Source: Candidatus Saccharimonadia bacterium | GTDB lineage: Bacteria; Patescibacteriota; Saccharimonadia; Saccharimonadales; JALRHH01 | NCBI GenBank assembly: GCA_023253175.1 | Contig: JALRHH010000001.1 | Location: 300,020-364,019, forward strand | Direction of reading: 5' to 3' | DNA length: 64,000 nt | Shown here: piece after piece, positions 6,526 through 39,742 of the stretch | How positions within the stretch are numbered: the first letter of the stretch is position 1 | Layout of the letters: each line of letters starts with the position of its first letter | Position numbers and translations under genes: made by a program | Notes under the pieces: generated by a model | Databases searched by the model: none | What the model saw: only the letters and a program-made list of their open reading frames with translations | Told to the model about the DNA's origin: nothing

Positions 6526-8167
<1,642 letters not shown>

Positions 8168-23008: not shown

Positions 23009-23019
23009 ACCGCGTACTA

Positions 23020-24156: not shown

Positions 24157-24174
24157 CTTGACTCCTTTCGGGGG

Positions 24175-24345: not shown

Positions 24346-24363
24346 GAAACTACCTCTTCCTGG

Positions 24364-24546: not shown

Positions 24547-24824
24547 ACGGATTTCCTTTACGCTTGAAGGGGCTTGTAGCACTTATCTCGGAGAGAGCAA
24601 GCAATCTAAGCACGATATCCCTGATCAGATTGCTTGCCCCCTCAACAAGAGGCTTAACTCACACTATTAAGGTGCATGTATTTCGCCAAATATATGGTCA
24701 GTCACATACAGACTGTATATTATATAATTTTACGTATATTTTTTCAATACTATTTACTACGCTCTATCAGGGTAATGTTGCGGGTTGCAAGCAGAGCGCC
24801 GATACAAAGCAGTACATAGTAATA

Positions 24825-24872
24825 GCGGGTGGCCTCTTGATCACGACAAAGTCGGAAAAAGAGGCCACCCGC
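24825..24872 (-). terminator. 14-bp inverted repeat downstream of terD
   Basis: GCGGGTGGCCTCTT..20 nt..AAGAGGCCACCCGC. Confidence 0.4.
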
Positions 24873-24954
24873 AGGGTAAAGCTGAAGCCGGCTGGCCAAA
24901 GCTAGTCTGTCACTAGGGACAGATGTGATTCAACCAACCGGCGACTTGGACAGC

Positions 24955-25536: not shown

Positions 25537-25608
25537 GATGACTTCCTTCCTTGGGCATTGTATACCCGGTTGCAGCGCCGCGGAGTTGCGGTGCTGATGA
25601 GAAGAGAA

Positions 25609-26757: not shown

Positions 26758-26970
26758 CGCTCACTCCTTGGATTGGTTGGTTGAATTCTTAACGAGCTCC
26801 TCAAGACTTTGATGTTCTCTCTGTCGAAAAGCCCTATTATTGTATCATAAAAAGTATCCTATACAACTGTTTTGTTAATATAGCCAAATATTGACTTTGT
26901 ATGTTTTTATGAATATAATCGCCCCAGTCAACAAGCGTTGATGCACCTCGACAGATTGGAAGTGAATACC

Positions 26971-27738
26971 ATGGGCGTTTCGCTCGAGAAGGTTCAGCAG
27001 CAAGCTCCGCATCTGGTCAGCCTCGTCAAGGAGACGAGCGTGATCCTGGAGAAGAAGGGCCTCAACCCGGAGAGCTACAAGGCGGCCGTCGTCGGCACGC
27101 TCGACTTCAGCGGCTCCGCGTCCGGCCTCTACCAGAACGGCACCATGCAGCGCGCGGCCGACCTCGGCTTCGCCGCCGGTCTCGTCTTCGACGACGACGG
27201 CTCCGTGCCGTTCTCGCTCTTCGACAGCGGCGTGACCGACATCGGCGAGATCACCCTCGGCAACTGCCAGGGCTTCGTCGACAAGGCCATCCGCGGCCGC
27301 CGCATGGGCAGCACCGACTACGTGTCCGCGCTGAAGTGGATCGTGGACACCGCCGGCTTCGGCAAGGTCAACCTCGGCTCCGGCGGTGGTGGCTTCTTCC
27401 GGAAGGGATCGTCCCTCGAGGTCAAGGCCAAGGCCCAGTACCCGACGTACGCGCTCTTCGTCACCGACGGCGAGCCGAACGGGGGTACCGAGGGCCAGAT
27501 CCGCCAGTACCTGACGCAGATGTCCCAGCTGCCGATCTTCGTGCAGTTCGTCGGCGTCGGTCCGCACCAGTTCCAGTTCCTCCGCCAGCTCGACGAGCTC
27601 GACGGTCGACTGATCGACAACGCAGGCTTCTTCGACGCCAAGGAGGTCGGCAACGACCAGAGCAAGATGCTCGAGGCCATGCTCTCCGAGTTCCCGCAGT
27701 ACTACGCCGACGCGCGTCGTCAGGGCCTCGTGGGCTGA
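26971..27738 (+). CDS. vWA-domain protein of the TerF-C-terminal / TerY-like type
   Basis: MIDAS-like DFSGSAS, FVTDGEPNG and PIFVQFVGVG. Start trimmed to ATG 26971 (MGVSLEKVQQQAP). Confidence 0.7.
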   Translation: MGVSLEKVQQQAPHLVSLVKETSVILEKKGLNPESYKAAVVGTLDFSGSASGLYQNGTMQRAADLGFAAGLVFDDDGSVPFSLFDSGVTDIGEITLGNCQGFVDKAIRGRRMGSTDYVSALKWIVDTAGFGKVNLGSGGGGFFRKGSSLEVKAKAQYPTYALFVTDGEPNGGTEGQIRQYLTQMSQLPIFVQFVGVGPHQFQFLRQLDELDGRLIDNAGFFDAKEVGNDQSKMLEAMLSEFPQYYADARRQGLVG

Positions 27739-27864
27739 TCCTCCGGCATCCCGCCAACCACACAACTTCATACCATCTGTCGAAGGGCTGCATACTGACT
27801 TTTACGCTTCACGCGTTCAAAAAAGATCAGTATGCAGCCCAACGACACACCCTTTATGCATATC

Positions 27865-27899
27865 AAAAACACCCGCGTAAGGTTTGCGGGTGTTTTTTT
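27865..27899. terminator. bidirectional rho-independent terminator
   Basis: AAAAACACCCGC-GTAAGGTTT-GCGGGTGTTTTT between the convergent vWA and TerD-like genes. Confidence 0.6.
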
Positions 27900-28031
27900 A
27901 TTATCACAATATATCGTATCCAAAAATTGCGTAAACGGCCCACCTGGTTCCGAGAAGAAAATCTCCTCAAGGTTCCAGGTGGGCCGCTTATGCGACTAGC
28001 TATGAAATTATAGGTGCAAGCAGCAGGAGAA

Positions 28032-28667
28032 CTACTTGGTCTTGCCCTCGGGGCCGTGGTCCATGAGGACCTGGTCACCCCTGTAGCCGACGCGCTTCTC
28101 CGAGCCCGGCTTGGAGTACAGCTCCAGGTTGACCACGGACAGGTGACCGTCCTGCTCGAAGAGCACCTCGCCGAAGCAGAGGGTGTACTGGGTGCCGTTG
28201 GCGCTGGCGTCGGCGGCGCTCAGGCTGACCACCTGCGGTCCGTTCTCGATGTTGACGTAGACGCCGTACTCGCGGAACGATCCTTGGCCGTTCTCGAGGG
28301 CCGAGTACGACGACAGGGCGACCGACGCGATGTCGGGGTGCCACGTGATGTCGATCTTCTCGAGGTCTCCCGGGTTCGTGACGTCGCCGTGGTGGCGGAT
28401 CGCCCCCTCGGAGGTCTTGAGCACCTCGTCCCGGTTGGCAGCACCGACGTAGACCTGGCGACCGTCACGGTAGCGCACGAGCGCCTTGAGGTCGTAATCC
28501 TTGCCCTCGGCCGTCCAGCCGTTGCTGACCACGATGGTCGTGTCACCGGCGGACGGCTTGGTCAGGGTGACCCTGGAACCCTTGGTCAGGTTGACCCCAC
28601 CGGTGGGCGGAGCAGCCTGCTGCACGGGTGCCTGCGGAGCCGAGCTCTTCTTGTCGAACAGTCCCAT
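28032..28667 (-). CDS. divergent TerD-fold protein (211 aa)
   Basis: GVNLTKGSRVTLTK, NGWTAEGKDYDLKALV and GDVTNPGD..EKIDI resemble the TerD/CABP1 beta-sandwich. AGGAAGGA RBS. Confidence 0.55.
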   Translation of the reverse strand: MGLFDKKSSAPQAPVQQAAPPTGGVNLTKGSRVTLTKPSAGDTTIVVSNGWTAEGKDYDLKALVRYRDGRQVYVGAANRDEVLKTSEGAIRHHGDVTNPGDLEKIDITWHPDIASVALSSYSALENGQGSFREYGVYVNIENGPQVVSLSAADASANGTQYTLCFGEVLFEQDGHLSVVNLELYSKPGSEKRVGYRGDQVLMDHGPEGKTK

Positions 28668-28978
28668 GGGGAGTCCTTCCTAAAAATACTAGTCGCTGAT
28701 CCGAACCCATTTGGGGACGGTATAAAGCGATAAATTCTAAATTGTTAATGTGCGTAGTTTCGTCGTTTACGACTCTTCAGTGTGGCTTACATCCACAGAC
28801 TATGCGGGGGTATCATGATTGAAGGCTGCGAATTAACGACAGCGATCGCACATGCACCCCCTCGGGATTAATGGCACCCGTGTGGCCAGTATGTTCACGT
28901 GTCCAAGTGGACACGGAAGAACCTCTACATACATGAGGGTGATGGTGCTCGCTCCAAGGAACGAGTCATCTGGTTCAA

Positions 28979-30262
28979 TCAGCCAGCGGAAGGACCCGCG
29001 GGCAGCGCCAGGATCTGACGGGACGAGCCGACGATGCTGTTGACGACCTGCTCGTTGTAGTGAGCGCTGGAGCCATCCAGGATGAGCTTGGACTGACCCA
29101 TGGTGGCGTCCAGCTCAGCACGCTTGCGCGAACCTTCCTCGACCTCGGTGAGGATGTTCTCGGCCATCTGAACGAGCGAGTCCGTCACCGCAGTGATGGT
29201 CTCCGGCAGCAGCGTGGGCGTCTGCACCGCACGCATGATCTGACCTGCCGCCTGAGCCGAGTTGGCCGCCACCTGCTGCAGCATGTCGTTGGTCGCGCTG
29301 GAGACCGCCTCGTTGGCCTTGGCAGCCTCGAGCGACTCCGCCATCATCCGCCACTGGACGATCGCCAGCTTCATGGTGGGGATGGTGAGCCCGACAGCCT
29401 CGTTGAGCTTCTCGGCCATACCAACGTTCAGGACACGCATCATGCGCACCTGCGGCGACGTAGCCCAGGCGACCCACAGCCGGCCCTTGTACTCACCGAT
29501 CTTCACGTCCATCTGGAGGATCAGGTCGGCGTAGCGCTGCTTGAGCTCGGCGTTCTTGTTGCCGGTGGTCGGGTCATCCGGAGGGATGGTGGCCACCTGC
29601 TGCCGCGCCTGCTCGGCGATGCACTCCATGACGGCGATCGCAGAGATCAGCTGGAAGATCGCAACCTCGTTCTCGCCGTAGAGCTGATCGAGGTACGCGA
29701 TGTTCCGCATGGCCTGCATCTTGTGCTGGTTCAGGTCCTTGAGGATCTTCTCCAGCTGGGTGTCGACGGACTGCATGTCGACGAGCATCGCCTGGACGTA
29801 GTTGCGGCCCTTGCGGAACCACTTCTTGACGAAGCTGCTCTCCCACTCGTCGTACGACTTCTTGCCCTCGGGGGTGTTGAGGTCGTACCTGCCCTTGAGG
29901 GACTTCGAGGTGAGGGTGAGCTCGCGCATGATGTCCCTGACGAACCCGGTGTCGTTGGCCGGCAGCTCACGCATGAGGCGGTCGATGAGACCGTTGACCC
30001 CTTGGAGCGCCGACTGCCCGTGGTTCATGAGAACCTGGGTGTTGTTCAGCATCTCCGGCAAGAGCTTGGCGGCCTCGGCCTGGACCTTGGCGAGCTCCGA
30101 CGGTGGGATCATGTCCTTACAGACGACACCACTGCGGGACTCGGGGGTCTCGCTGACGGTCGCCAGTCCAGACGCGATGGGCTTCTCCGGCTGCGGGGCA
30201 ACCTCCAGGGGAGGGGCCTCCGTGGGGGCGCCGGGGACTTCGAACTGCAGTGGGGTGGTCAT
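28979..30262 (-). CDS. telA: TelA/KlaA toxic-anion-resistance family protein
   Basis: Long helical protein with LKGRYD, VDTQLEKILKDLNQHK, LDQLYGENE and IPTMKLAIVQWRM, which is the TelA pattern. AAGGAGG RBS. Confidence 0.85.
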   Translation of the reverse strand: MTTPLQFEVPGAPTEAPPLEVAPQPEKPIASGLATVSETPESRSGVVCKDMIPPSELAKVQAEAAKLLPEMLNNTQVLMNHGQSALQGVNGLIDRLMRELPANDTGFVRDIMRELTLTSKSLKGRYDLNTPEGKKSYDEWESSFVKKWFRKGRNYVQAMLVDMQSVDTQLEKILKDLNQHKMQAMRNIAYLDQLYGENEVAIFQLISAIAVMECIAEQARQQVATIPPDDPTTGNKNAELKQRYADLILQMDVKIGEYKGRLWVAWATSPQVRMMRVLNVGMAEKLNEAVGLTIPTMKLAIVQWRMMAESLEAAKANEAVSSATNDMLQQVAANSAQAAGQIMRAVQTPTLLPETITAVTDSLVQMAENILTEVEEGSRKRAELDATMGQSKLILDGSSAHYNEQVVNSIVGSSRQILALPAGPSAG

Positions 30263-30296
30263 CGACCAGCCTCCTTTTCCTTGGTTGGGATGTAGC

Positions 30297-30743
30297 TCAG
30301 CTGAACCGCTGCGCTGACAGAATCTTGGTGTCGACTCCGAAGTTGGTCATGCTCTGGGTGCCACTCGGCGTTGCCTTGCTCAGTACTCGAGCCGCGAAAC
30401 CATCCACGGCGTCAAAGCCCTCCTGCAAGTGCTCGTCACGACTCGGGTAACCAAAGTCGTTCTGAATGATCACGTACTGCTCGAGTACGCGTACCACCGC
30501 CTTGAGATTCTCCTGGAACTGCATGATGTCACTGTCAGAGGGCTTACCGTCTGGGCTGTTACGCACCAAAAACGGCTCGCCGTTCTGAGCGATCAACGTC
30601 AACAGGACCTTGAGCCTCGGGGCGGTGATCTGGATCCGAGTCTGTCCGATGTCGTCGAGCAGAGCACGTACTCTGCCGAGCGAATACTCGGGCTCGGTCT
30701 TCGGGACAGACTGGCTTGACTGATTGTTCTTGAACCAACCCAT
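30297..30743 (-). CDS. hypothetical protein (148 aa), immediately upstream of and co-oriented with telA
   Basis: Start trimmed to MGWFKNNQ, which follows a perfect AAGGAGG. Ends 35 nt before the telA start. Confidence 0.55.
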   Translation of the reverse strand: MGWFKNNQSSQSVPKTEPEYSLGRVRALLDDIGQTRIQITAPRLKVLLTLIAQNGEPFLVRNSPDGKPSDSDIMQFQENLKAVVRVLEQYVIIQNDFGYPSRDEHLQEGFDAVDGFAARVLSKATPSGTQSMTNFGVDTKILSAQRFS

Positions 30744-30994
30744 ATCGCTACCTCCTTTCAATCTGGTGGCAGTGTTGTAACGACGGTTTTGGGACATGAA
30801 AAGAACGAGATTGAAGTAAGAAGAATATATCATTTTTATACTTATAAGTCAATGAAGTTGCCATATGGTCAACTACTTATATTTACATACAACACTTTTC
30901 AGATATAGACTAGTGCCATCATGTCTATTTACAGAGAATAACAAAACAGGTAGAATTACTTTTGTTATCTTTCTCTCAAGAGAGTCACCACTAT

Positions 30995-31069
30995 TCCGAG
31001 GTGGCGCAGCGGTAGCGCAGTTGACTGTTAATCAATTGGTCGCGGGTTCGAATCCCGCCCTCGGAGCCA
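30995..31069 (+). tRNA. tRNA-Asn (anticodon GTT), CCA encoded
   Basis: Manual cloverleaf: acceptor TCCGAGG/CCTCGGA, D arm GCGC-AGCGGTA-GCGC, anticodon arm GTTGA-CTGTTAA-TCAAT, T arm GCGGG-TTCGAAT-CCCGC, discriminator G, then CCA. Confidence 0.95.
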
Positions 31070-31116
31070 AGCATAAGCACTTTGCGAAAGCAGAGTGTTT
31101 TTGTTTTGGTATACTG
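31045..31116 (+). repeat. array repeat R0 (authentic tRNA 3' end plus hairpin module)
   Basis: GGTTCGAATCCCGCCCTCGGAGCCAAGCATAAGCACTTTGCGAAAGCAGAGTGTTTTTGTTTTGGTATACTGCA. Confidence 0.8.
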
Positions 31117-31121
31117 CATTT

Positions 31122-31712
31122 ATGACAGAACAGTATCTTCCAGAGCTTACTGAACCAGTAAGTCTTCACGGTATTGCTGGTTTAGAAAATATTCCAGTTA
31201 GAGCAGGCATAGAGTTACGACCTCTGATGGTATCTGATGCTCAGCGAATATTAGAGATTCTAGACACTGATCCAACTATTCGTGAGCGTGTTTCTGTGGC
31301 TTCAAAAATGCATTCACCTGAAGATGTTGCCGAGCAGGTTGAGACTTACCAGAATGACGAACATCTTATCCGTTATGCAATAGTTCAGGATAATTCTCCT
31401 ATTGGACTTGTATCATTCTGGCGTGACGTCGATAATTCTTTTGATGCTCCTGATGCTCCTGACGATTATGGTTTTGGCTACTTTCTCGACCCAGCCAATC
31501 GTGGAAGTGGCATAGTAACTGATGCAGTAAAAAGTATTATGGATCGTGCTATTGAAGTAATGCACGTAAATCAATTTATTGCATATTGTGAAGACAATAA
31601 TCCTGGCAGTATCGCAGTACTAACTAAAGTCGGTTTTCATCCGACAGATACTGTTTTAGAAGAGCAGACAACTGGCTGGGTTGAGCGTAAGTATGTTCGT
31701 GAAATTCTGTAA
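31122..31712 (+). CDS. GNAT-family N-acetyltransferase (cassette 1)
   Basis: RGSGIVTDAVKSIMDRAIE (acetyl-CoA loop-like) and NPGSIAVLTKVGFHP. Start trimmed to ATG 31122 so that it lies outside the repeat. Confidence 0.75.
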   Translation: MTEQYLPELTEPVSLHGIAGLENIPVRAGIELRPLMVSDAQRILEILDTDPTIRERVSVASKMHSPEDVAEQVETYQNDEHLIRYAIVQDNSPIGLVSFWRDVDNSFDAPDAPDDYGFGYFLDPANRGSGIVTDAVKSIMDRAIEVMHVNQFIAYCEDNNPGSIAVLTKVGFHPTDTVLEEQTTGWVERKYVREIL

Positions 31713-31727
31713 ACTAGATATCATTCT

Positions 31728-31795
31728 TAGTTCGAATTTCATCCACTAATGGGAGCCAAACTAAGAAGTCCACATTTTGTGGGCTTTTTAGTTTG
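31728..31795 (+). repeat. array repeat R1a (variant outer stem)
   Basis: TAGTTCGAATTTCATCCACTAATGGGAGCCAAACTAAGAAGTCCACATTTTGTGGGCTTTTTAGTTTG. The outer stem is CAAACTAA/TTAGTTTG. Confidence 0.75.
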
Positions 31796-31898
31796 ATTCG
31801 TGGCGAGAGTTGAACCCGATAGTCCGAAGGACCGGGTTCGATAAGCAAAGTCACGCGCAGATGCTTGCATCGAGCATGGCTGCAGGTTATATAGTATA
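31796..31898. other. ORF-less cassette content A (conserved non-coding element)
   Basis: GGCGAGAGTTGAACCCGATAGTCCGAAGGACC resembles GAGCGAGACTTGAATCCGAGACCGATTCGAAGGATC at 33533-33570. Function unknown. Confidence 0.3.
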
Positions 31899-31956
31899 AT
31901 CCTGCCCTCAGAGCACTTTGTGAGAGCAGAGGTTTTTGTCTTGGTTGTGCTTGCAA
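31899..31956 (+). repeat. array repeat R1b (second close copy of the tRNA-Asn 3' end)
   Basis: TAATCCTGCCCTCAGAGCACTTTGTGAGAGCAGAGGTTTTTGTCTTGGTTGTGCTTGCAA, compared with the tRNA sequence AATCCCGCCCTCGGAGCCA..GCACTTTGCGAAAGCAGAGTG. Confidence 0.7.
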
Positions 31957-31996
31957 ATACTTTATGCTGGTCTAAAATTAAATCAAGGAGATAGCT

Positions 31997-32470
31997 ATGT
32001 TGTACGGAGAGAAGCTAGAGATTAGAGAACCATTGTTAGTAGCCCGCCTAAATGTTCTAGATAGTCCATCAGTTCAGAGAAGGGTTCGTAGGGCAACACG
32101 ACATGTACTTATGCACGTGGTTGAAAACCCTAACACACAATATGCAATAACTTGTGAACCAAGGGCGATTAGCACTAAGATTCAAACGCTTGTACTGGGA
32201 CAATATAATACTTCAGCCGAATTTGAAGCATTACCAGAAGGTAATAATTTCTTCTACAGGAAAACATCTGAAGATGGAGTACTTTTCAACCCTGAATGGA
32301 CTGGTAGCCCAGACGGGCTGTACGCCCCACATGCTATGAACTATGTTGATCAGCTTATTGCCAATGGTGCGCGTGTAATGAGTGCACTAAATATACCTAG
32401 CACGCAAGAAATACGTGCCTCAGGTCCTCAACCAAGCTACCCTAAACCAGTTGGTCCTGGGGGGGCATAG
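31997..32470 (+). CDS. hypothetical protein (157 aa, cassette 3)
   Basis: AAGGAG RBS at 31985-31990. The TAG stop is the first triplet of repeat R2. Confidence 0.5.
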   Translation: MLYGEKLEIREPLLVARLNVLDSPSVQRRVRRATRHVLMHVVENPNTQYAITCEPRAISTKIQTLVLGQYNTSAEFEALPEGNNFFYRKTSEDGVLFNPEWTGSPDGLYAPHAMNYVDQLIANGARVMSALNIPSTQEIRASGPQPSYPKPVGPGGA

Positions 32471-32550
32471 CCTGAACCTCGTCTACTAGGGAGAGCCATA
32501 AGCATTTTGACCTCTGTTTCGGCAGAGGTTTTTGTTTTGGTTATGCTTGC
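32468..32550 (+). repeat. array repeat R2
   Basis: TAGCCTGAACCTCGTCTACTAGGGAGAGCCATAAGCATTTTGACCTCTGTTTCGGCAGAGGTTTTTGTTTTGGTTATGCTTGC. Confidence 0.8.
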
Positions 32551-32585
32551 TTATTACTTAGCTTTGCAAGAAGATATAATCTCAT

Positions 32586-32945
32586 ATGCGTGAAAGAATA
32601 GAAATCATCCAAGTTGGCGAAGATAGACAAGCCCCAATTGACCAGTTTCTTGGCTATCTAGAGAATGGTTTATTCGCCACTCCCGAAAGTGGACAATGGC
32701 GTGAACACGATGAGTTGTTTCACATTCCAAGAATCAATACACTTTCAGTAGATGAGGTACAGTTTGTTATGGATGCCGCACAGCTTGCGCGTCGACTTCT
32801 ACATGAAGGCAGGAAGATTCCAGCTGTGTACGCTGCAGAAAGTATTGATCGCTTTCTGACAGACGTGGTTTCTTCGCAAATCTTTGAACGTCAGGAACTT
32901 GAAAAAAAGATGATCCAATACGGCGTGCAGGAGCGATTGTTTTAG
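32586..32945 (+). CDS. hypothetical protein (119 aa, cassette 4)
   Basis: ORF between R2 and R3. TATAAT at 32575-32580 lies only 5 nt from the ATG, so the transcript may be leaderless. Confidence 0.5.
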   Translation: MRERIEIIQVGEDRQAPIDQFLGYLENGLFATPESGQWREHDELFHIPRINTLSVDEVQFVMDAAQLARRLLHEGRKIPAVYAAESIDRFLTDVVSSQIFERQELEKKMIQYGVQERLF

Positions 32946-32981
32946 TTAATACGCTACTGCATAGGAGGTGGTTATTCTTTA

Positions 32982-33063
32982 CAGTTCGACTTGTTTCACT
33001 AATAGTGAGCCAAGCATAAGCAGTTTGCGGAAGCAGAGTGTTTTTTGTTTGGTTATGCTTGCA
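32982..33063 (+). repeat. array repeat R3
   Basis: CAGTTCGACTTGTTTCACTAATAGTGAGCCAAGCATAAGCAGTTTGCGGAAGCAGAGTGTTTTTTGTTTGGTTATGCTTGCA. Confidence 0.8.
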
Positions 33064-33107
33064 AGTCACACTAAGCTAAAAGATAATAATGGCCAAGGAG
33101 AGAACAC

Positions 33108-33464
33108 ATGCATTTTATACAGGGAGAACCAACTCAGATTACTTTTGATAATTCTGACGAGCTGCAAGCATTAGGATGGGCATGCTCAGATATGAGAAGG
33201 GCAAATCCTGACGATGAGCAAACAGTGTCAGCATATGGTATTGCCTTGCGTGGTACAGAAGTCCGACACAACCAGTCAGACAATAAGGATTTTCCGCTCG
33301 TAGGTGAAGAGGCTGATGTCGTTCTTTCAGTATTACGACAGTGGGTTGAACTAGGACCTCCAGCTAAAGAAGGCCAAGTTACTGATGCCGCAAGAGCAAA
33401 AAGCTACAAAACTGCTCAAAGTATCGTAACTCAAGTTACAGAACTTACTCAAGCAGAACGCTAG
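33108..33464 (+). CDS. hypothetical protein (118 aa, cassette 5)
   Basis: AAGGAG RBS. Stop codon is the TAG of TAGTTCGAA in R4a. Confidence 0.5.
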   Translation: MHFIQGEPTQITFDNSDELQALGWACSDMRRANPDDEQTVSAYGIALRGTEVRHNQSDNKDFPLVGEEADVVLSVLRQWVELGPPAKEGQVTDAARAKSYKTAQSIVTQVTELTQAER

Positions 33465-33530
33465 TTCGAATTTCGTCCACTAGTGGGGAGTCAAATAAAA
33501 TAACTCTCGAAAGAGGGTGTTTTTATTTGG
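33462..33530 (+). repeat. array repeat R4a (variant outer stem)
   Basis: TAGTTCGAATTTCGTCCACTAGTGGGGAGTCAAATAAAATAACTCTCGAAAGAGGGTGTTTTTATTTGG. The outer stem is CAAATAAAA/TTTTATTTG. Confidence 0.75.
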
Positions 33531-33636
33531 ATTTGAGCGAGACTTGAATCCGAGACCGATTCGAAGGATCAAGGTCACGATGTTCGGTCTGCAAAGGCTC
33601 TCACAGGAATTTATTGCAAAAAAACTTGCAGGTATA
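33531..33636. other. ORF-less cassette content B (conserved non-coding element)
   Basis: Related to element A. Contains an internal 7-bp stem, AGACCGA..TCGGTCT. Function unknown. Confidence 0.3.
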
Positions 33637-33697
33637 AACTCTCGTCCCAGCAAGATAAGCATAAGCACGCTACGAAAAGATTTCTGCTTATGCTTGC
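33637..33697 (+). repeat. array repeat R4b
   Basis: AACTCTCGTCCCAGCAAGATAAGCATAAGCACGCTACGAAAAGATTTCTGCTTATGCTTGCAA. Confidence 0.65.
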
Positions 33698-33727
33698 AAT
33701 ATAAATGTAAAGGAAGATACTAAAGCC

Positions 33728-34636
33728 ATGAAAACCATTGAATCCCGAATTCCAGCTGGTCCACCTGAGTTACCCGAGATAGCAGGCGAAACTATTGAAA
33801 ACATTCTTGAGACACATAACATTGCGGGGGTGCTCAAAGAACACGGCTGCGACCCATCCCTGGCGGTAGAAACGGCTACAAATTATGCGCAAATAGAGGT
33901 CGCGGAAAACTATTACTACCCGCTTGTAGGTAGGCTGATTCAGTATTTAGCCGATATTCCTCCGGCAATGGTGACGCACAGCGACCAAATAGGTGGCATG
34001 AAATTTCGGACGCAGGCAACATGGGGATTTTATACTATCGACAGACATCACCCCACTGGACCTAAAGAGACAAAATTGACTCTTGGAATACCAAAAGATG
34101 TAGATCCGAGCTCGGAAATGATTGAAGCGATTCAATCCATTAATAATGATAACCCTATTAGACATAGACTTCTTGGACTAGCTCCGGAGCGAAAGCGCGT
34201 GTTTGGACGTGAGACAGTGGATCAAGTTCGGCTAAAGCAGACACTTGGTAAGCTATTCACAGAACACGTAGCGGTCGTAGATGCTTATGAATTTACTCAA
34301 GATTTGGCTCTCCCTTATCAACTAGGCGCACCAAAGAGTAAGAACGAGCACATTGCTCAGTACCTCCAGCCTCATTATCCACGACATTCTTTTAAAGAGT
34401 ATTGGAGACCCGAGACGCTGGCTCAAGACCTTGAGTCAAGAGACAAAGATACAGATGGTACAACTGGCACTACACCAACAGAAAAGCACCAATGGATGCT
34501 AAATCTAAATCGTCGCGCAACTATTCAATACTTACTTCAGAGGGCAGTAGAGGTAGAGCGTTATGGTCAAATTATTGAAGCTGGCACACCCTTAAGTGAC
34601 CGAGATATTGCAGTACAACGTACAAGCCCAGCTTAA
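33728..34636 (+). CDS. hypothetical protein (302 aa, cassette 7)
   Basis: ORF following R4b. No motif recognised. Confidence 0.55.
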   Translation: MKTIESRIPAGPPELPEIAGETIENILETHNIAGVLKEHGCDPSLAVETATNYAQIEVAENYYYPLVGRLIQYLADIPPAMVTHSDQIGGMKFRTQATWGFYTIDRHHPTGPKETKLTLGIPKDVDPSSEMIEAIQSINNDNPIRHRLLGLAPERKRVFGRETVDQVRLKQTLGKLFTEHVAVVDAYEFTQDLALPYQLGAPKSKNEHIAQYLQPHYPRHSFKEYWRPETLAQDLESRDKDTDGTTGTTPTEKHQWMLNLNRRATIQYLLQRAVEVERYGQIIEAGTPLSDRDIAVQRTSPA

Positions 34637-34756
34637 CTAAGATCTTTGAATTATCAACAGATAGAAGCATGGTCTTTACTCATCCCTTGAATGATACACA
34701 AGGTGATGGAAAGCGCAATTAGATCATGGAGATAGTTACCTCAGGTGAAAAATCAA

Positions 34757-34829
34757 AGATCATGCTTGCCAGAACGCGAAGATATACGATCGTATTTCGT
34801 GAAGGCAGATTGTTTTGGTTATGCTTGCC
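34757..34829 (+). repeat. array repeat R5 (degenerate, lacks the TTCGAA segment)
   Basis: AGATCATGCTTGCCAGAACGCGAAGATATACGATCGTATTTCGTGAAGGCAGATTGTTTTGGTTATGCTTGCC. Confidence 0.5.
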
Positions 34830-34862
34830 TTATAGCATTTCAGGGCATACCATACATTTGAA

Positions 34863-35138
34863 ATGCCAGAAATACGCTTAAGTGATTTTGAAGAAGAATT
34901 AATTCCACCCATATTGCCCCCATGCATTGAAGACCAATGTCCAAATATTACTAATCCTTCGGGACGTGATGTATTAGTATGTCTTTCAGGTATCCATGTA
35001 CTCCGCCTCTTAGGCAAAACTAGTATTTTCGAGAGTACGCCATGTGGTTCTGAGGCACTTGCAACCAATGAAGACATTAAGGATGGCGAACAGCCTAGCT
35101 CGGGTAAACTGTGGCAAGATACTAAATATTATTACTAG
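34863..35138 (+). CDS. hypothetical protein (91 aa, cassette 8)
   Basis: ORF. Stop codon is the TAG of TAGTTCGAA in R6. Confidence 0.4.
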   Translation: MPEIRLSDFEEELIPPILPPCIEDQCPNITNPSGRDVLVCLSGIHVLRLLGKTSIFESTPCGSEALATNEDIKDGEQPSSGKLWQDTKYYY

Positions 35139-35205
35139 TTCGAAAGTTGTTCACCGGGTAGAGCTAAGCACAAGCACTTTGCGAGAGCAGAGTGTTTTTG
35201 TTTGT
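35136..35205 (+). repeat. array repeat R6
   Basis: TAGTTCGAAAGTTGTTCACCGGGTAGAGCTAAGCACAAGCACTTTGCGAGAGCAGAGTGTTTTTGTTTGT. Confidence 0.75.
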
Positions 35206-35236
35206 AAATCATTTCTTTGTCTGCCAGACTGGGACT

Positions 35237-35662
35237 ATGTCTAGTATTGAAGAATGTCCGTTTTGTAATTTAGGTGATCGAATTCTACTTGAAAATGAGC
35301 ATGCTAATCTATTCTTAAGTAACCCACGAAAGGTTAAGGGTCAGGTATTGATTACCCCTAAAAGACACATTGAACAATCGTGGGAAATGTCTGACGAAGA
35401 GCTTCTGGCCGTATTCAGTCTCATTAAAGTTGCCCAGCACAAATTGATTGCCGAATTTGGCGGTGGAGTAGACGTAAAGCAAAACTATCGTCCGTTCATG
35501 AAGCAAGGTCGTGTAAAAGTCGACCATACTCATTACCATGTATATCCACGAACAAGCGAGGATGAGCTCTACCAACAGGTAGAGCGGCATGAAACACCAA
35601 TGTTTATTAATCTTTCGGAAGATGAAGAAGTAAAAATCTCTGGTCTTTTCCGCCAAGATTAG
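35237..35662 (+). CDS. HIT-family (histidine triad) nucleotide hydrolase/transferase (cassette 9)
   Basis: Histidine triad VDHTHYHVYPR and an N-terminal CPFC zinc-like motif. Start trimmed to ATG 35237. Stop is the TAG of R7. Confidence 0.8.
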   Translation: MSSIEECPFCNLGDRILLENEHANLFLSNPRKVKGQVLITPKRHIEQSWEMSDEELLAVFSLIKVAQHKLIAEFGGGVDVKQNYRPFMKQGRVKVDHTHYHVYPRTSEDELYQQVERHETPMFINLSEDEEVKISGLFRQD

Positions 35663-35740
35663 TTCGAGCTTCAGACACCGCGGGAGCCATAAGCATTTTG
35701 ACCTCTGTTTATTCAAAGGTTTTATTTTGGTTATGCTTGC
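35660..35740 (+). repeat. array repeat R7
   Basis: TAGTTCGAGCTTCAGACACCGCGGGAGCCATAAGCATTTTGACCTCTGTTTATTCAAAGGTTTTATTTTGGTTATGCTTGC. Confidence 0.8.
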
Positions 35741-35787
35741 AAATCATTTTTCAACATTAGAAAATAAGTAAAAGTAAGGAGTAACTT

Positions 35788-36930
35788 ATGACCTACGAGC
35801 CAGTGGAAGGAGTTGATTATTTAATTGACCTCTATGCGATTGCCAATGTTCCTCATGAAGTTAAGCAAGATGAAATAAATCTTGCTATAAATGCCCGACT
35901 AAAGGAATACCATCCCGATAGACTCCAGGGACTTGCACCCGAATTTCGAGAAAAAGGTGAACGAATGGCCCGACTTCTCAACCGTGCAAAGACAATTCTA
36001 TTAGATCCTGAGTCTCGCTCACAATACGATGAAGTATTGTCTGAATGGGACGGTCCTCTTAGCAAAGACGGTAGACCCGTTGTGGTCATTGGGCGCCTTG
36101 CACGGGCAGAAGCTGCTAGTAAGTCTCCGGAAGAAGTAGAGGCGGGAATTGCCTCCCAAATTCCACAGATTGAAAGTATGACAGGATATTCTGCCTCTCA
36201 GCTTTCTTTTCTTGAGAAAATGGTACAACAAGCAGGCGATGACGCTCCTGATGATCTCCTCCAAGCATATGAAGCAGCCTTACTTAGTCAAGACAGGGCA
36301 CTTGCGATAGAAGAAGCCAATCGTGGTGACCTTCTTGGCATACCAAGTATGGAAGGTACTCGGTATATTGCTACGCTAGACTATGCTGAGGATAAAGCTC
36401 ACGCAATTGAGACAGCTCAAAAGGCGTATAAGGAAGAATTTATTACCGCAGCCATTGGAGGCGTCAGCACTCGACTTGCATTACTAGCAGGAGAGAGCAC
36501 ACCCGAAACTAGCACCACTCTTGTTTCCCCAGAGCCTATTGAATTACCAACCTACTTTGACGAACAAGCGGCAAAGATTAAGGAGATTGCCGAAAAGCGA
36601 CAAGTTATTGTAGAAAAACGGCTTGCAAACCTTAAGCCTACGTATCCAGAAATAGAGCTTCAGGATGAAGCGCAGCAGACACTAGCATTGCGATTTGGGT
36701 CTGTGTGGCTAGGGCTCATTGTCGATACAGAGAAACAAAGTGTAAACAGTGTTGACATACCATCAGATATTAAGCAGCTGCTGTCAGAAGAAGACTATGT
36801 TACGGTAATTCAGAACGGCTTTAACGTCATGACTATTGAACCACTCGACCAATTAGACTTTGAAGAGCTGATTAACGCAGCGGTCGAGTATCATGTTAAA
36901 AGGTACGGGCTTCTTCTAGAAGAAAATTAG
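35788..36930 (+). CDS. J-domain (DnaJ N-terminal domain) protein, 380 aa (cassette 10)
   Basis: DLYAIANVPHEVKQDEINLAINARLKEYHPDR with the HPD tripeptide. The rest is unrecognised. Stop is the TAG of R8. Confidence 0.75.
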   Translation: MTYEPVEGVDYLIDLYAIANVPHEVKQDEINLAINARLKEYHPDRLQGLAPEFREKGERMARLLNRAKTILLDPESRSQYDEVLSEWDGPLSKDGRPVVVIGRLARAEAASKSPEEVEAGIASQIPQIESMTGYSASQLSFLEKMVQQAGDDAPDDLLQAYEAALLSQDRALAIEEANRGDLLGIPSMEGTRYIATLDYAEDKAHAIETAQKAYKEEFITAAIGGVSTRLALLAGESTPETSTTLVSPEPIELPTYFDEQAAKIKEIAEKRQVIVEKRLANLKPTYPEIELQDEAQQTLALRFGSVWLGLIVDTEKQSVNSVDIPSDIKQLLSEEDYVTVIQNGFNVMTIEPLDQLDFEELINAAVEYHVKRYGLLLEEN

Positions 36931-36990
36931 TTCAGGCCTCATCCACCGGGAGAGCTATAAGCACTTTTACCTCTGTAGTGGAGGTCTTTT
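36928..36990 (+). repeat. array repeat R8 (right half truncated)
   Basis: TAGTTCAGGCCTCATCCACCGGGAGAGCTATAAGCACTTTTACCTCTGTAGTGGAGGTCTTTT. Confidence 0.65.
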
Positions 36991-37004
36991 GATACACTTA
37001 GTGA

Positions 37005-37634
37005 ATGGTACTAACTGAAAATAGCTCAAACTATATCAATAAAGAAGCTGTCGGCTACTTAGTAAATTCCGGCCTAAGCCCAGAGAACCAAAGTAAGGTA
37101 GCTGATATTCACGAAAAGCTCATTTCAAAATTTGGCAATAATATTTGGTGTCCGCCACCAGAGACACTGCATATTACGCTCATGGACTGGCTTGCGCCAC
37201 TCGTTGACTACGAAAGAGATAAAGATGTCCTGTTTGAAGAAATACGACCAACATATAGCAGATCTCTAGAGGAAGCCATCGCTGGTATCGGTAGCATTAC
37301 AGTTAAGTTTGATGTACTGCACGTAAGTCCAGGTGCTGTCTTTAGCGTCGGCCAGGACGGAGGACAACTTAACCATATTAGAGAGTCGTTTTTAAATAAA
37401 GTAGAAGAGCTTTTAGACGGTACAAAACAACCTCCAAATATAGCCCATTTTTCTGTAGCACGATTTATGGCTGAAGTTGATATTGAAGATGTCGAAGCAG
37501 TGCTTGAAGAATGTTCAATTGATATTATCCAAGAAATAAATTCATTTCGTCTCATTCGTGAGACAAAGCTTCCGATGCAACAGTATGAAGTAATTCAGGA
37601 GTATATTCTTGAAGACAAATCAACGCATTACTAG
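37005..37634 (+). CDS. 2H-phosphoesterase superfamily protein (LigT / cyclic phosphodiesterase-like) (cassette 11)
   Basis: Two HxT/S motifs at the expected spacing: LHITLM and AHFSVAR. Stop is the TAG of R9. Confidence 0.6.
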   Translation: MVLTENSSNYINKEAVGYLVNSGLSPENQSKVADIHEKLISKFGNNIWCPPPETLHITLMDWLAPLVDYERDKDVLFEEIRPTYSRSLEEAIAGIGSITVKFDVLHVSPGAVFSVGQDGGQLNHIRESFLNKVEELLDGTKQPPNIAHFSVARFMAEVDIEDVEAVLEECSIDIIQEINSFRLIRETKLPMQQYEVIQEYILEDKSTHY

Positions 37635-37700
37635 TTCGAAGCTCGTTCACTAGAGAGCCAAGCATAATCATTACTAAAGAGAAAAGTGATTTTGTTTTAC
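37632..37700 (+). repeat. array repeat R9
   Basis: TAGTTCGAAGCTCGTTCACTAGAGAGCCAAGCATAATCATTACTAAAGAGAAAAGTGATTTTGTTTTAC. Confidence 0.7.
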
Positions 37701-37731
37701 AAAATTTTAATTTATGATATTATAAATTTCT

Positions 37732-38151
37732 ATGAGTCCGGAGAGAACAGAAAGTTGGGATTGGTCACAACTTGATCCAATGACTAAAAGTGTCGTAGCG
37801 GCTTTTTCGTGGCGGATTGGCAATGACGAAGGCTGTTTATCAGACCAGGCATTTATTGGCTCAACCACAGAAGCATTCGAAAGTATGACCACTGAAGACA
37901 TTGTAAGAACCGTTCAATGTACCGGTCGAACAGGATTACGTAATATGATCATTGGTAGATTGTCAGGAGCGGACGGAGAATCAGTACGGCGAATGACTGA
38001 GCAAATCGGTGAATTAGCTGGAGGTAGTGATACTTCAAGATTATTAGCCAAGTTTGCGTGCCAACAACTAACTGGTAAATTAAACAGTAGCTATGATGCG
38101 ATTCCTACACTAAGTGTTCTTAGTGAGATGGCTACTGCTCGAATTAGTTAA
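37732..38151 (+). CDS. hypothetical protein (139 aa, cassette 12)
   Basis: ORF between R9 and R10. Confidence 0.45.
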   Translation: MSPERTESWDWSQLDPMTKSVVAAFSWRIGNDEGCLSDQAFIGSTTEAFESMTTEDIVRTVQCTGRTGLRNMIIGRLSGADGESVRRMTEQIGELAGGSDTSRLLAKFACQQLTGKLNSSYDAIPTLSVLSEMATARIS

Positions 38152-38170
38152 AGTTGCGCCTTTTTACTTT

Positions 38171-38246
38171 ACTTCGATAATCGTCCAGGATAGGGAACCA
38201 AACATAAACACTCTGCGAAAGCAGAGTGTTTATGTTTGTTATACTT
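38171..38246 (+). repeat. array repeat R10 (continuous perfect 18-bp hairpin)
   Basis: ACTTCGATAATCGTCCAGGATAGGGAACCAAACATAAACACTCTGCGAAAGCAGAGTGTTTATGTTTGTTATAC. Confidence 0.75.
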
Positions 38247-38252
38247 AAAGAC

Positions 38253-38402
38253 ATGACTAAGAAAAAATTAATTCTTTGTATGTTAATTACCCTAACAGTA
38301 ACATTATTGGCTGCTGCGGTTTTGTACAGTAAAGAGAAAAAGAAATGCGAAACAAGTGCAACTTATTTCAGTACTCATCCTAATTTCTGCCCAGCCTCCT
38401 AA
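38253..38402 (+). CDS. 49-aa membrane peptide (cassette 13), below the ORF-track size cut-off
   Basis: My translation is MTKKKLILCMLITLTVTLLAAAVLYSKEKKKCETSATYFSTHPNFCPAS. It occupies the whole R10-R11 interval. Confidence 0.35.
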   Translation: MTKKKLILCMLITLTVTLLAAAVLYSKEKKKCETSATYFSTHPNFCPAS

Positions 38403-38405
38403 TTA

Positions 38406-38488
38406 AAGTTCTAATCTCGTCCATTAGACGGAGCCATAAGCATTTTGACCTCTGTTTCGGCAGAGGTTTTTGTTTTGGTTATGCTTGC
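38406..38488 (+). repeat. array repeat R11
   Basis: AAGTTCTAATCTCGTCCATTAGACGGAGCCATAAGCATTTTGACCTCTGTTTCGGCAGAGGTTTTTGTTTTGGTTATGCTTGC. The last 58 nt are identical to R2. Confidence 0.8.
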
Positions 38489-38539
38489 ATGCTATTAATC
38501 ACCCTGCCATACTAAACTACGATATAAGAGACAAATTCC

Positions 38540-38848
38540 ATGAGTTTATATGATTTGCAGAGAGACTTAGCGGACCATGATTCACGTAATTGGCTACATG
38601 AGCAGGGCTTTGAAACAGACAAGCATAATTTTTTGCATGTTGCTAAAACCGCAGGCAAAATTGCAACTCATTTAGAAGCCATTGATGATAAGAAAGAAGA
38701 TCCTAGCGCGCAACTAGACAGCATGGTTGTTGCAGATCTTGCTATCGAGGCCATGCGCTTTGCAAATAATAGTGGACGGAGTCTACAAGAACTTATCGAA
38801 GCGCGCATGGAGGAACTTCGAGAACGAGCTGCTCAGGCACAGAGTTAG
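38540..38848 (+). CDS. hypothetical protein, possibly an all-alpha MazG-like NTP pyrophosphohydrolase fold (102 aa, cassette 14)
   Basis: The pattern FLHVAKTAGKIATHLEAIDD..VVADLAIEAMRFAN..SLQELIEARMEEL loosely resembles MazG-type helices. Stop is the TAG of R12. Confidence 0.35.
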   Translation: MSLYDLQRDLADHDSRNWLHEQGFETDKHNFLHVAKTAGKIATHLEAIDDKKEDPSAQLDSMVVADLAIEAMRFANNSGRSLQELIEARMEELRERAAQAQS

Positions 38849-38916
38849 TTCGAATTTCGTCCACTAATGGGAGTCAAGCACAAGCACCTTGCTGAAAGGC
38901 AAGGTGCTTTTTTGTT
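38846..38916 (+). repeat. array repeat R12 (terminal; also serves as a bidirectional terminator)
   Basis: TAGTTCGAATTTCGTCCACTAATGGGAGTCAAGCACAAGCACCTTGCTGAAAGGCAAGGTGCTTTTTTGTTATGA, with a perfect 9-bp stem GCACCTTGC/GCAAGGTGC. Confidence 0.75.
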
Positions 38917-39742
38917 ATGATTCTAGCTCAAGGTTGATTAATCCATGTATGTGGCTGCTCAGCTTTGCCACACGCGCAGACCTGTCTCCATGCAGCAGTT
39001 CTACTTTATTAGGTGATAGATGAGCTCGATATAATGCTGCAATAGTATCAGCTACCTGGCTACGAAATCCGTCATCGACTACTCGCTTGCCATCATCTTC
39101 AAAGGCAACTTCTGTATGGTCAGTTAAAAGAATTTTGTCATAATGATCAGCGGCGAAAGCGTAAGCTTGCTCGGCTATAGAAATGGGGAAAGATGGCGTA
39201 GCAAGATCACTAATACTGGCTAAATTGGCCTGTGCATGGTTTTCTTTTGGTAGGCGTAACATCGCATAGCCAAATCCAGATAAAACACCACGATCGGTCA
39301 ATACCACACCTATAGCTTTTTCTCGATCGGGCTGTAGTTTACGCGCCATTGCTAACGCAGACATGCCCGCTCCTTGTGTGCGAGACATCGTTCGCAAGGT
39401 GATACTTGCTTGATCATCTTTGTTATAGCCTGTCGTAAGCATATTGCGCTGAGGATATAATGCATCTGTCTGTCGAGCTATCTCACCTACAATTACAATC
39501 GGCACGGTAATATTGTCAACTATTTCAGTAACACAAACTGTTGGGTAGTCATAATGATGGGTGCCACCAAAATCATCAATATCACCGTCAACCAGTAAAT
39601 CTTTGTCTTGTATATAATCTCTGATAACAGTGGTCTTGCCGGCGGAATGGGCTCCATCAACAGCAATCATTAAAGCATGCTCTTCAGAAGCTCCGATTGG
39701 CTTTTGCGCCAGGGATAAGTTTTCTGCCTCAAAATGCAACAT
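38915..39742 (-). CDS. P-loop NTPase (AAA/NadR-kinase-like ATPase)
   Basis: Walker A DGAHSAGKTT and Walker B-like ILLTDH. Convergent with the end of the cassette array. Confidence 0.55.
   Translation of the reverse strand: MLHFEAENLSLAQKPIGASEEHALMIAVDGAHSAGKTTVIRDYIQDKDLLVDGDIDDFGGTHHYDYPTVCVTEIVDNITVPIVIVGEIARQTDALYPQRNMLTTGYNKDDQASITLRTMSRTQGAGMSALAMARKLQPDREKAIGVVLTDRGVLSGFGYAMLRLPKENHAQANLASISDLATPSFPISIAEQAYAFAADHYDKILLTDHTEVAFEDDGKRVVDDGFRSQVADTIAALYRAHLSPNKVELLHGDRSARVAKLSSHIHGLINLELES

Follow-up and report, generated by a model that had tools for sequence, protein, structure and literature searches.

Anatomy of the array downstream of tRNA-Asn

The locus described here lies in a stretch of 64,000 nucleotides from a Candidatus Saccharimonadia bacterium (contig JALRHH010000001.1; the whole stretch is called the window) and consists of a tRNA-Asn gene followed by a run of genes separated by hairpin-bearing repeats. 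The tRNA-Asn(GTT) gene was located at positions 30995–31069 (+ strand) with ARAGORN and with Rfam (RF00005, 73.3 bits). It is followed by an array of 12 cassettes on the same strand, each with one open reading frame (ORF), which extends to position 38920, the last ORF ending at 38848. Four ORFs were annotated with Pfam (GNAT, HIT, DnaJ-domain and 2'-5' ligase-like proteins), and the other eight gave no Pfam match. The initial annotation had argued that the repeats are not a decaying duplication, and this was borne out, as the 12 ORFs proved to be mutually unrelated.

Thirteen junctions were compared side by side and aligned. They display a common order, with a module followed by a trailer, a hairpin with TTTTTGTTTTGG, and then either GGTTATGCTTGCAA or a TGnTAnnnT box. 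In the window the module is about 33 nt long (AGTTCGAAnnTCGTCCACTAnnGGGAGCCA; consensus over species AAAGTTGCGAAGCTCGTCCACTAGGGGGAGCCA) and ends in GGAGCCA, which mimics the tRNA 3' end. Trailers are of two kinds, type A (AGCATAAGCA) and type B (TAAGCATTTTGA). Since the 3' end of the real tRNA-Asn (GGTTCGAATCCCGCCCTCGGAGCCA) precedes the same type A trailer and hairpin as in the junctions, the junctions are regarded as copies of the tRNA end and its downstream sequence. The repeat family is confined to 31064–38920. Searching with GAGCCAAGCATAAGCA and at most 3 mismatches gave 9 matches for 0.73 expected, the close matches all lying within 31064–38886, and two other motifs agreed. The features are given below (J, junction; R, hairpin copy; 5' and 3' arm, the outer-stem strands CAAGCATAA and TTATGCTTG of the initial annotation).

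30995–31069 (+): tRNA-Asn(GTT), found with ARAGORN and Rfam, 3' end ...GGTTCGAATCCCGCCCTCGGAGCCA; anchor of the array and candidate attB-like left half
31070–31121 (+): J0, with type A trailer AGCATAAGCA, terminator at 31075–31100, T-tract, predicted extended −10 TGGTATACT and leaderless ATG
31122–31712 (+): cassette 1, ORF for a GNAT acetyltransferase (Pfam, homologues)
31726–31758 (+): J1 module (..AGTTCGAATTTCATCCACTAATGGGAGCCA), putative P-type mimic of the tRNA 3' end
31757–31795 (+): R1a, palindromic (bidirectional-type) terminator, fold z-score −6.2; the annotated outer stem is A-tract/T-tract pairing
31796–31915 (no strand assigned): composite element, copy 1, with the degenerate tRNA 3' end AATCCTGCCCTCAGAGCA
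31916–31978 (+): J1b, with terminator remnant, TTGTGCTTGCAA (predicted −35 TTGCAA), 16 nt and TAAAAT; 3' arm without 5' arm
31997–32470 (+): cassette 2, ORF of 157 aa, no Pfam match
32466–32556 (+): J2, with module (GAGCCA at 32493–32498), type B trailer TAAGCATTTTGACCTCTG, terminator at 32509–32530 and TTATGCTTG at 32541–32549
32586–32945 (+): cassette 3, ORF of 119 aa
32980–33087 (+): J3, with module (GAGCCA at 33007–33012), type A trailer, terminator and predicted promoter; CAAGCATAA at 33011–33019 and TTATGCTTG at 33053–33061; fold z-score −2.6
33108–33464 (+): cassette 4, ORF of 118 aa
33461–33529 (+): J4a, with module (GAGTCA at 33488–33493) and the R4a palindromic terminator at 33492–33529, fold z-score −5.9
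33530–33656 (no strand assigned): composite element, copy 2
33657–33700 (+): J4b, with the 11-bp inverted repeat AAGCATAAGCA / TGCTTATGCTT, no inner terminator, then a predicted −35 TTGCAA
33728–34636 (+): cassette 5, ORF of 302 aa, ORFan
34637–34862 (+): J5, degenerate and without module; two TGCTTGC boxes at 34762–34769 and 34817–34828
34863–35138 (+): cassette 6, ORF of 91 aa
35134–35236 (+): J6, with module, type A trailer and terminator at 35172–35197; without 3' arm
35237–35662 (+): cassette 7, ORF of the HIT family (Pfam)
35658–35787 (+): J7, with module, type B trailer, weak terminator and predicted promoter TTATGCTTGCAA; fold z-score −0.3
35788–36930 (+): cassette 8, ORF for a DnaJ domain protein (Pfam)
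36926–37004 (+): J8, with module, type B trailer and terminator at 36969–36985
37005–37634 (+): cassette 9, ORF for a 2'-5' RNA ligase-like protein (Pfam)
37630–37731 (+): J9, with module, type A trailer, hairpin and predicted promoter TTTACA/16/TATTAT
37732–38151 (+): cassette 10, ORF of 139 aa
38168–38256 (+): J10, with module (GAACCA), R10 palindromic terminator at 38199–38238, TGTTATACT and leaderless ATG; fold z-score −11.8
38254–38402 (+): cassette 11, small hydrophobic ORF of about 49–56 aa
38404–38539 (+): J11, with module, type B trailer, terminator at 38447–38468 and predicted promoter TTATGCTTGCAT
38540–38848 (+): cassette 12, ORF of 102 aa
38844–38920 (+): J12, with the last module (GAGTCA), type A trailer and terminator at 38882–38909; end of the array

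Seven of the 12 cassettes end in a TAG stop codon that overlaps the start of the module by its last bases (TAGTTCGAA); other species have the stop 5–57 nt upstream of the module. The TGnTAnnnT box of the junctions, an extended −10 sequence situated 5–7 nt before the ATG, directly follows the terminator T-tract at window positions 31106–31124 and 38238–38256 as well as in the related loci L032, L039 and L045, which suggests that the corresponding cassettes may give leaderless mRNAs.

Around the array, the gene at 38915–39742 was found to be convergent. On the other side, smpB lies 10.7 kb upstream of tRNA-Asn (19820–30995), compared to about 1.3 kb in locus L016. The genes located in between (two PRTase_3, HAD, TerD/TelA-like and unknowns) may represent a separate insertion.

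Terminator hairpins, their outer stems and a covarying composite element

Hairpins are more frequent in the region than expected by chance. Terminator-like hairpins were counted 19 times as against 6.2±2.6 in shuffled sequences, those of the + strand lying in the junctions between ORFs. Eight hairpins of + strand junctions were called as terminators, with fold z-scores from −2.3 to −11.8, and their stems vary in sequence between copies and species with a T-tract always following. The inner stems are ordinary intrinsic (Rho-independent) terminators.

The initial annotation had described an outer stem, CAAGCATAA / TTATGCTTG, in most copies, with different complementary sequences replacing it in R1a, R4a and R10. 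The replacement sequences themselves were found where they had been reported, CAAACTAA / TTAGTTTG at 31757–31764 and 31788–31795 in R1a, and CAAATAAAA / TTTTATTTG at 33492–33500 and 33521–33529 in R4a, and the perfect 18-bp hairpin of R10 (38199–38238) was confirmed as the longest local inverted repeat of the region. This R10 variant of J10 recurs in L045_1069. The canonical pair turned out to be much rarer than claimed, as the full 9-mer pair is present at J3 only, with an extended version at J4b (33657–33696), and a mere 5–6 bp version in another register at J2, J7 and J11. The 3' arm is missing in J0, J6, J8, J9, J10 and J12, and it occurs without the 5' arm in J1b, J5b and L045_2759. Conversely, most copies, those downstream of real tRNAs among them, have a 5' arm but no 3' arm, and no more than about 5 of 15 window copies have the two arms together.

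The three replacement stems are not homologous to the canonical one. Their 3' arms (TTTTTAGTTTG, TTTTTATTTG and TTTATGTTTG) align with the T-tract columns and not with the columns of TTATGCTTG, and the alternative outer stems of R1a, R4a and R10 arise where a terminator palindrome is extended by pairing of its A-tract with the T-tract. In J0 the type A trailer already pairs with the T-tract via G-U pairs and one U-U mismatch, and R10 differs from J0 by three one-sided substitutions. Palindromes adjoining the composite element described below have 15–19 pairs and reach GAGCCA, while the median elsewhere is 8; the R1a and R4a terminators are long palindromes because an inverted copy of GAGCCA and trailer starts the adjacent composite element.

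Compensatory change was examined on an enlarged sample, for which a scan of species-representative genomes yielded 4 Saccharibacteria loci, a metagenome scan 31 contigs, and nhmmer with a model of the window copies 95 matches. For the outer stem, 15 distinct copies from 8 loci carrying both canonical arms were used, with 500 shuffles as control. None of the 9 pairs was changed on both sides, a value reached by 500 of 500 shuffles, and about ten deviations are present, all of them breaks or wobbles on one side only. The shorter register of the type B copies showed one cell with both sides changed, as did 153 of 500 shuffles. The complementarity as such is real, since 94.2% of the outer-stem cells are paired as compared to 25–46% when the partner is slid. 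The small upstream hairpin, described initially as variable in sequence and still self-complementary, was not confirmed as a helix. When 55 distinct modules were aligned on GAGCCA, 41 of them lacked the third pair, with a paired fraction of 0.63 overall compared to 0.60 after shuffling; the outer two pairs are the conserved CC..GG, and the best local stem falls in many registers. It is a conserved motif and not a helix.

Folding as single-stranded DNA (ssDNA) gave strong stability at R1a (z −6.2), R4a (z −5.9) and R10 (z −11.8), but only at these three copies. The outer stem is included in the minimum-energy structure of J3 (z = −2.6), J7 is at chance level, and the minus strands are weaker. 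In the RNA minimum-energy folds of J2, J3 and J11 the trailer pairs with the T-tract, not with TTATGCTTG. No conserved extrahelical bases were found, the 12-nt one-sided bulge being the T-tract of the terminator. With regard to the 3' arm, it is best read as a promoter −35 box, because it contains TTGCAA and a −10-like hexamer follows 16–18 nt downstream in 11 of 17 copies, two of which were flagged by a scan; the box takes the form TTATGCTTGCA in many junctions. The complementarity of CAAGCATAA and TTATGCTTG is therefore one between two sequence-conserved motifs, the tRNA trailer and the −35 box, without compensation. The initial proposal of a folded attC-like substrate or a functional RNA thus loses its argument from compensation, while two of its elements hold in modified form: the inner hairpins are RNA elements, namely terminators, and the junctions are most likely recombination sites, though double-stranded ones of a serine recombinase and not folded attC. 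Compensatory stems that were apparent in a dozen repeats vanished once homologous columns and more copies were used, which calls for caution.

A structure that is conserved while its sequence changes does exist next to two of these terminators. A composite element of about 130 nt was found at 31796–31915 and 33530–33656, directly 3' of R1a and R4a and nowhere else in the window. It recurs after similar palindromic terminators in L016 (twice), L035, L040, L045, L049, L052 and L054; the copies outside the window include L016 2593–2740 and 3595–3737, L054 1046–1185, L052 10797–10935, L040 9110–9247, L045 509–649 and L035 17–141. The element starts with an inverted copy of the tRNA-Asn T-arm, often after TGGCTC (the reverse complement of GAGCCA), followed by a small variable hairpin, a forward copy of variable loop, T-stem and TTCG, an insert of 55–70 nt with nested hairpins, and finally the T-stem 3' strand and acceptor 3' strand ending in GGAGCCA. 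RNAalifold predicted 26 pairs in 4 helices. Both-sided changes were found in 17 of the 26 pairs (9.9±1.8 in shuffles, 0 of 500 reaching the observed value), and 89.1% of the cells are paired as against 69.5±2.0 after shuffling (0 of 500) and 23–44% in slid controls. As three of the four helices are not derived from the tRNA, this is not an artefact of local tRNA copying, and the element truly covaries. The covariation is unusually clear given nine copies, and the composite is a candidate new structured RNA or DNA motif.

No match for either the composite element or the junction repeat was found in Rfam 15 (E ≤ 1–5), in which only tRNA and the group I intron of L052 were found. G-U and A-C cells are about equally frequent (13 and 10), which favours neither strand and neither RNA nor DNA as the level of action. 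True copies of the tRNA 3' segment occur only at composite elements (31898–31915; L016, L049, L052, L054), the ordinary junctions carrying a diverged mimic with a 5-nt insertion. In L049 the composite is directly bordered by the end of a recombinase island on one side and, on the other, by a perfect but displaced copy of the final 18 nt of the tRNA together with the canonical trailer. This position suggests that the element may be the ancestral downstream flank of tRNA-Asn, a non-coding cassette or a secondary attachment site. In L091 (8600–8860), a degenerate module and a composite-like sequence follow a GNAT homologue of another species, with no tRNA within 8 kb; apparently, the GNAT cassette is transferred or retained along with the composite element.

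Related arrays, serine recombinase islands and geometry of the proposed attachment sites

The same architecture was found after tRNA-Asn in other Saccharibacteria loci (L016, L034, L037, L041, L043, L057 and the L040/L045 contig), and after tRNA-Gln in L023. As the repeats of L023 follow tRNA-Gln, the arrays are not strictly bound to tRNA-Asn. There (5619–5840), the repeat family begins about 70 nt downstream of tRNA-Gln(TTG), and 12 nt past the gene an 18-nt stretch of the tRNA-Gln 3' end is repeated. Among 46 cargo ORFs no homologous pair was detected, and Pfam analysis of 47 cargo ORFs gave few matches, most having none at all. The 302-aa protein of cassette 5 was an ORFan among 5.8 billion proteins. 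Except for GNAT, no window cargo recurs in the fetched loci; the GNAT homologues sit in accessory gene runs, some of them with modules.

One insertion polymorphism was identified. L037 and L038 share 4.1 kb at 99.98% identity, with GGAGCCA as the exact start of the shared part; upstream of it, L037 has the tRNA and L038 the end (module) of another cassette. Because the two sequences diverge at this point, the cassette boundary is placed at or inside GGAGCCA, with new material arriving beside the tRNA.

Three further observations were made on related loci. In L052 (12772–12949, −) a group I intron (RF00028, 76.8 bits) lies in the tRNA-Asn anticodon loop, with the 3' exon directly after it. In L039 (1096–1650, +) a fragment of an rve/rve_3 DDE transposase is located on the opposite strand inside the cassette array. 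The phage-like IMG/VR contig L087 (LysM lysin, SLT, DNA methylase) carries at 7078–7120 (−) only the last ~45 nt of a Saccharibacteria tRNA-Asn, which is likely a phage attP for the same tRNA. Scans of viral contigs with the loose trailer pattern gave matches at chance level only.

Neither a large serine recombinase (LSR) nor any other recombinase was found within the 64-kb window. A targeted domain re-scan of the related loci revealed a 493-aa protein with Resolvase, Recombinase and Zn_ribbon domains in L049 (11380–12858), on the array side of tRNA-Asn, and LSR genes are located at 10001–11479 in L097, L098 and L101. In four genomes (L049, L097, L098–100 and L101–103) the last ~14 codons of the gene are antisense to the tRNA-Asn 3' end, and the C-terminal tail must consequently differ between the integrated and the excised state. 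The family counts 1399 matches, of which the best 120 are all about 492 aa long, many on contigs of 0.3–0.7 Mb. L040 contains at 5804–6103 (−), some 650 nt downstream of tRNA-Asn, a region that weakly resembles the C-terminal part of the recombinase (21% over 100 aa, E 7e-4) and may be the remains of a recombinase gene.

The LSR stands at the head of an island of 5.5–9 kb in each of the four LSR genomes, and the genes carried along are restriction-modification genes, a Rep protein or a LexA-like repressor. A standard module closes every island, and the two island ends (attL and attR) have only the 7 nt GGAGCCA in common. The window cassettes have the same ends. As they are bounded by tRNA..GGAGCCA and module..GGAGCCA, the LSR islands amount to large cassettes with the ends of the single-gene units of the window.

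The geometry of module and tRNA end differs in a regular manner. The distance between CGAA and GAGCCA is 16 nt in 29 of the 35 modules containing the motif, and 11 nt in six of six tRNA-Asn genes. In known attP and attB half-sites, the distal motif bound by the zinc-ribbon domain is shared and is located 5 bp nearer to the crossover in attB, which is also the shorter site by about 10 bp (PMC3783163). The offset of 5 nt found here matches this shift. The spacing of the outer motifs, 34 nt in module plus type A trailer and 25 nt in tRNA plus type B trailer, is in line with the shorter attB. From their composition, J0 (tRNA and type A) appears attL-like, J2, J7, J8 and J11 (module and type B) attR-like, and J3, J6, J9, J10 and J12 (module and type A) attP-like.

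Origin of the array and comparison with known systems

Taken together, we consider it reasonably probable that the region is an additive gene-cassette array built on the 3' end of tRNA-Asn, with junctions that are remnants of serine-recombinase attachment sites and with hairpins that are terminators. A unit consists of a tRNA-trailer copy with its Rho-independent terminator, an optional predicted promoter, one unrelated ORF and the ~33-nt module. The promoter would be formed by TTATGCTTGCAA acting as −35 box or by the extended −10 sequence straight after the T-tract. In the proposed mechanism the module would act as a P-type left half-site, the tRNA segment from T-loop to CCA as a B-type left half-site, and the trailer as right half-site, with the crossover inside GGAGCCA. 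The recombinase would belong to the 492-aa LSR family, as judged from the islands of related genomes, and the window cassettes, having no LSR, would be miniature elements that are not autonomous and were either mobilised in trans or left behind, like psiSCC versus SCC (the staphylococcal cassette chromosome).

Several points weigh against this interpretation. The weakest link is array growth against the rules of classical integrases. Recombination of attP with attL or attR is not carried out by classical serine integrases, which would not add units singly, so that serial growth to 12 units requires either relaxed specificity or circles carrying several cassettes. Relaxed specificity is a property of the serine recombinases Ccr and TnpX. 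The attP-like and attR-like junctions are intermixed and no rule for their order was found. The right-half motif (type A as P', type B as B', with a 4-nt offset) is weak though suggestive, and is not matched by the left ends of the LSR islands (CCAATTTGAAT...). Movement of single cassettes was not observed, since no cargo gene was found in two different arrays. Only one insertion polymorphism is available, and its breakpoint lies inside shared sequence, so that homologous recombination could have produced it. Finally, the 9-bp complementarity between trailer and −35 box is explained no further than by shared ancestry or by an inverted duplication of the trailer.

Spread without a dedicated recombinase was also weighed, but we hold it to be unlikely. 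In this case the ~95-nt junctions would serve as portable homology for natural transformation and homologous recombination, or would have spread among genes already in place, like repetitive extragenic palindromes or miniature inverted-repeat transposable elements, and R10 would have arisen by template switching at a quasi-palindrome. The junction blocks are indeed near-identical across species, GAGCCATAAGCATTTTGACCTCTG is found in 31 metagenome contigs, the L037/L038 breakpoint falls in shared sequence and the changes which perfected R10 are all one-sided. However, the repeats occur at one locus, in one orientation and always from a tRNA 3' end, the LSR islands begin and finish with the same sequences while only 7 nt are common to their ends, and the fixed +5-nt geometry of the module is not expected of homology tracts. 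A function at the RNA level is less probable still. According to it, the outer stem, the small hairpin and the tRNA-like GAGCCA would form a structure of the 3' untranslated region or of read-through transcripts for processing (maturation of the tRNA 3' type, RNase III) or for insulation between adjacent cassettes. The inner hairpins are certainly RNA elements, RNA folds often pair the trailer with the U-tract, and the junctions copy the tRNA 3' end and trailer exactly, so that the same processing signals could act on mRNAs. Against this, the TTATGCTTG arm lies after the terminator U-tract and is absent from terminated transcripts, the module has no acceptor-stem partner and neither helix covaries; moreover, the array itself, the L037/L038 polymorphism and the linkage of LSR and module would be left unexplained. 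A tRNA-like minihelix serving as RNase P substrate was likewise rejected, for there is no 5' acceptor partner upstream of the modules.

The reading closest to the initial annotation, in which the repeats are attC-type sites of an integron-like system that fold as ssDNA (outer stem R''/R', inner stem L''/L' or variable structure) and are recombined by a tyrosine integrase, appears very improbable and was rejected. Unrelated single ORFs on the same strand between imperfect palindromes of ~100 nt do resemble an integron, the 3' arm GTTATGC is one base from the core GTTRRRY, and the ssDNA minimum-energy fold of J3 includes the outer stem. The window and 40 related loci yielded no tyrosine recombinase: none of the genes of the 64-kb window matches the Pfam family Phage_integrase, a screen of 41 loci for the HxLRH tyrosine-integrase motif was negative, and none is among the 25 commonest Pfam families recorded for 68 large ORFs of these related loci. 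Instead of RYYYAAC the left arm reads GCATAAG, L boxes are absent, and neither IntI nor an R/L box architecture was found. The palindrome has both arms in about 5 of 15 window copies and does not covary, with zero both-sided changes. Furthermore, the element measures 45–50 nt, has a 12-nt bulge on one side only and lacks conserved extrahelical bases, the cassettes have their own terminators and predicted promoters, and the arms are explained as tRNA trailer and −35 box. Three other candidates were discarded. An IS200/IS605-type ssDNA element lacks a Y1 transposase in the cargo and a conserved right-end hairpin. For a Xer/dif or pdif module (CATAA...TTATG), the spacing would be 22–35 nt instead of 6–8, and dif-like arms are missing as far as the sequence can tell. 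A crossover in the T-loop for the cassettes does not agree with the L038 junction, which has no displaced tRNA 3' end.

Returning to the serine-recombinase array, its broader version remains tentative and rather doubtful. Saccharibacteria, members of the candidate phyla radiation (CPR), might possess a gene-capture platform working like an integron, in which an LSR would dock at the tRNA-Asn end and stockpile self-expressed single-gene cassettes, an attP of ~60 nt would mimic the tRNA end, and the composite element would be a new folded component (non-coding RNA, or folded or secondary attachment site). Genomes of ~0.6 Mb with few mobile elements may in this manner keep a hypervariable store of accessory genes at one tRNA, and the locus ties this store to a recognisable recombinase family with a short, defined target. 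If the link with the LSR is true, it would provide a natural integration site and enzyme for the genetics of Saccharibacteria, a new serine integrase whose compact att sites would extend the recombinase toolbox, and a second, mechanistically distinct case of integron-like cassette accumulation. The literature on Saccharibacteria or CPR, as far as it was covered, contained no account of tRNA-Asn cassette arrays, these repeats or this recombinase; the coverage was incomplete, so that novelty is not proven.

In comparison with known systems, the inner stems do not differ from plain Rho-independent terminators, with which they share a GC-containing stem, a loop of 4–6 nt and a T-tract at the 3' end of every ORF, with an A-tract mirror in R1a, R4a and R10; the palindromes of R1a and R4a reach GAGCCA through inverted duplication. 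The array resembles sedentary chromosomal integrons and CALIN (clusters of attC sites lacking an integron integrase) in its long same-strand series of unrelated, mostly unannotated ORFs, its species-typical repeat of ~100 nt and its growth beside a fixed anchor. It differs from them in having neither IntI nor R/L boxes, in its tRNA 3'-end anchor and in its likely serine rather than tyrosine recombinase. In the tycheposon islands of Prochlorococcus, integration takes place at a tRNA and older elements are pushed distally, with partial tRNA copies in between (10.1101/2020.12.28.424599). The model of tRNA-proximal growth is common to both, whereas tycheposons are multi-gene elements, mostly with a tyrosine recombinase and true partial tRNAs, and the array has single genes and a diverged mimic with a fixed 5-nt insertion.

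The closest parallels are offered by serine recombinases. The sites of the serine integrases of A118/LI, Bxb1 and phiC31 likewise have a distal motif 5 bp closer in attB, a shorter attB and a short crossover identity. The array sites are deduced from sequence, their half-sites are not clearly pseudo-palindromic and they form many tandem hybrid junctions, unlike those of unidirectional integrases. In its working the array comes nearest to the SCC, psiSCC and ACME (arginine catabolic mobile element) islands at rlmH, which are moved by the LSRs CcrAB or CcrC and form tandem units, some of them without recombinase. Tandem islands of SCCmec and ACME have been described (PMC5964201, PMC12648241). 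Here as there, an LSR targets the 3' end of one conserved gene and tandem units, some without enzyme, lie between short core direct repeats. The present array differs by its location at a tRNA of a CPR bacterium, by its single-gene units of 0.3–1.2 kb with their own terminator and predicted promoter, by its structured junction of ~95 nt, and by a mobility that is putative. The locus is probably a new variant of the serine-recombinase cassette islands.

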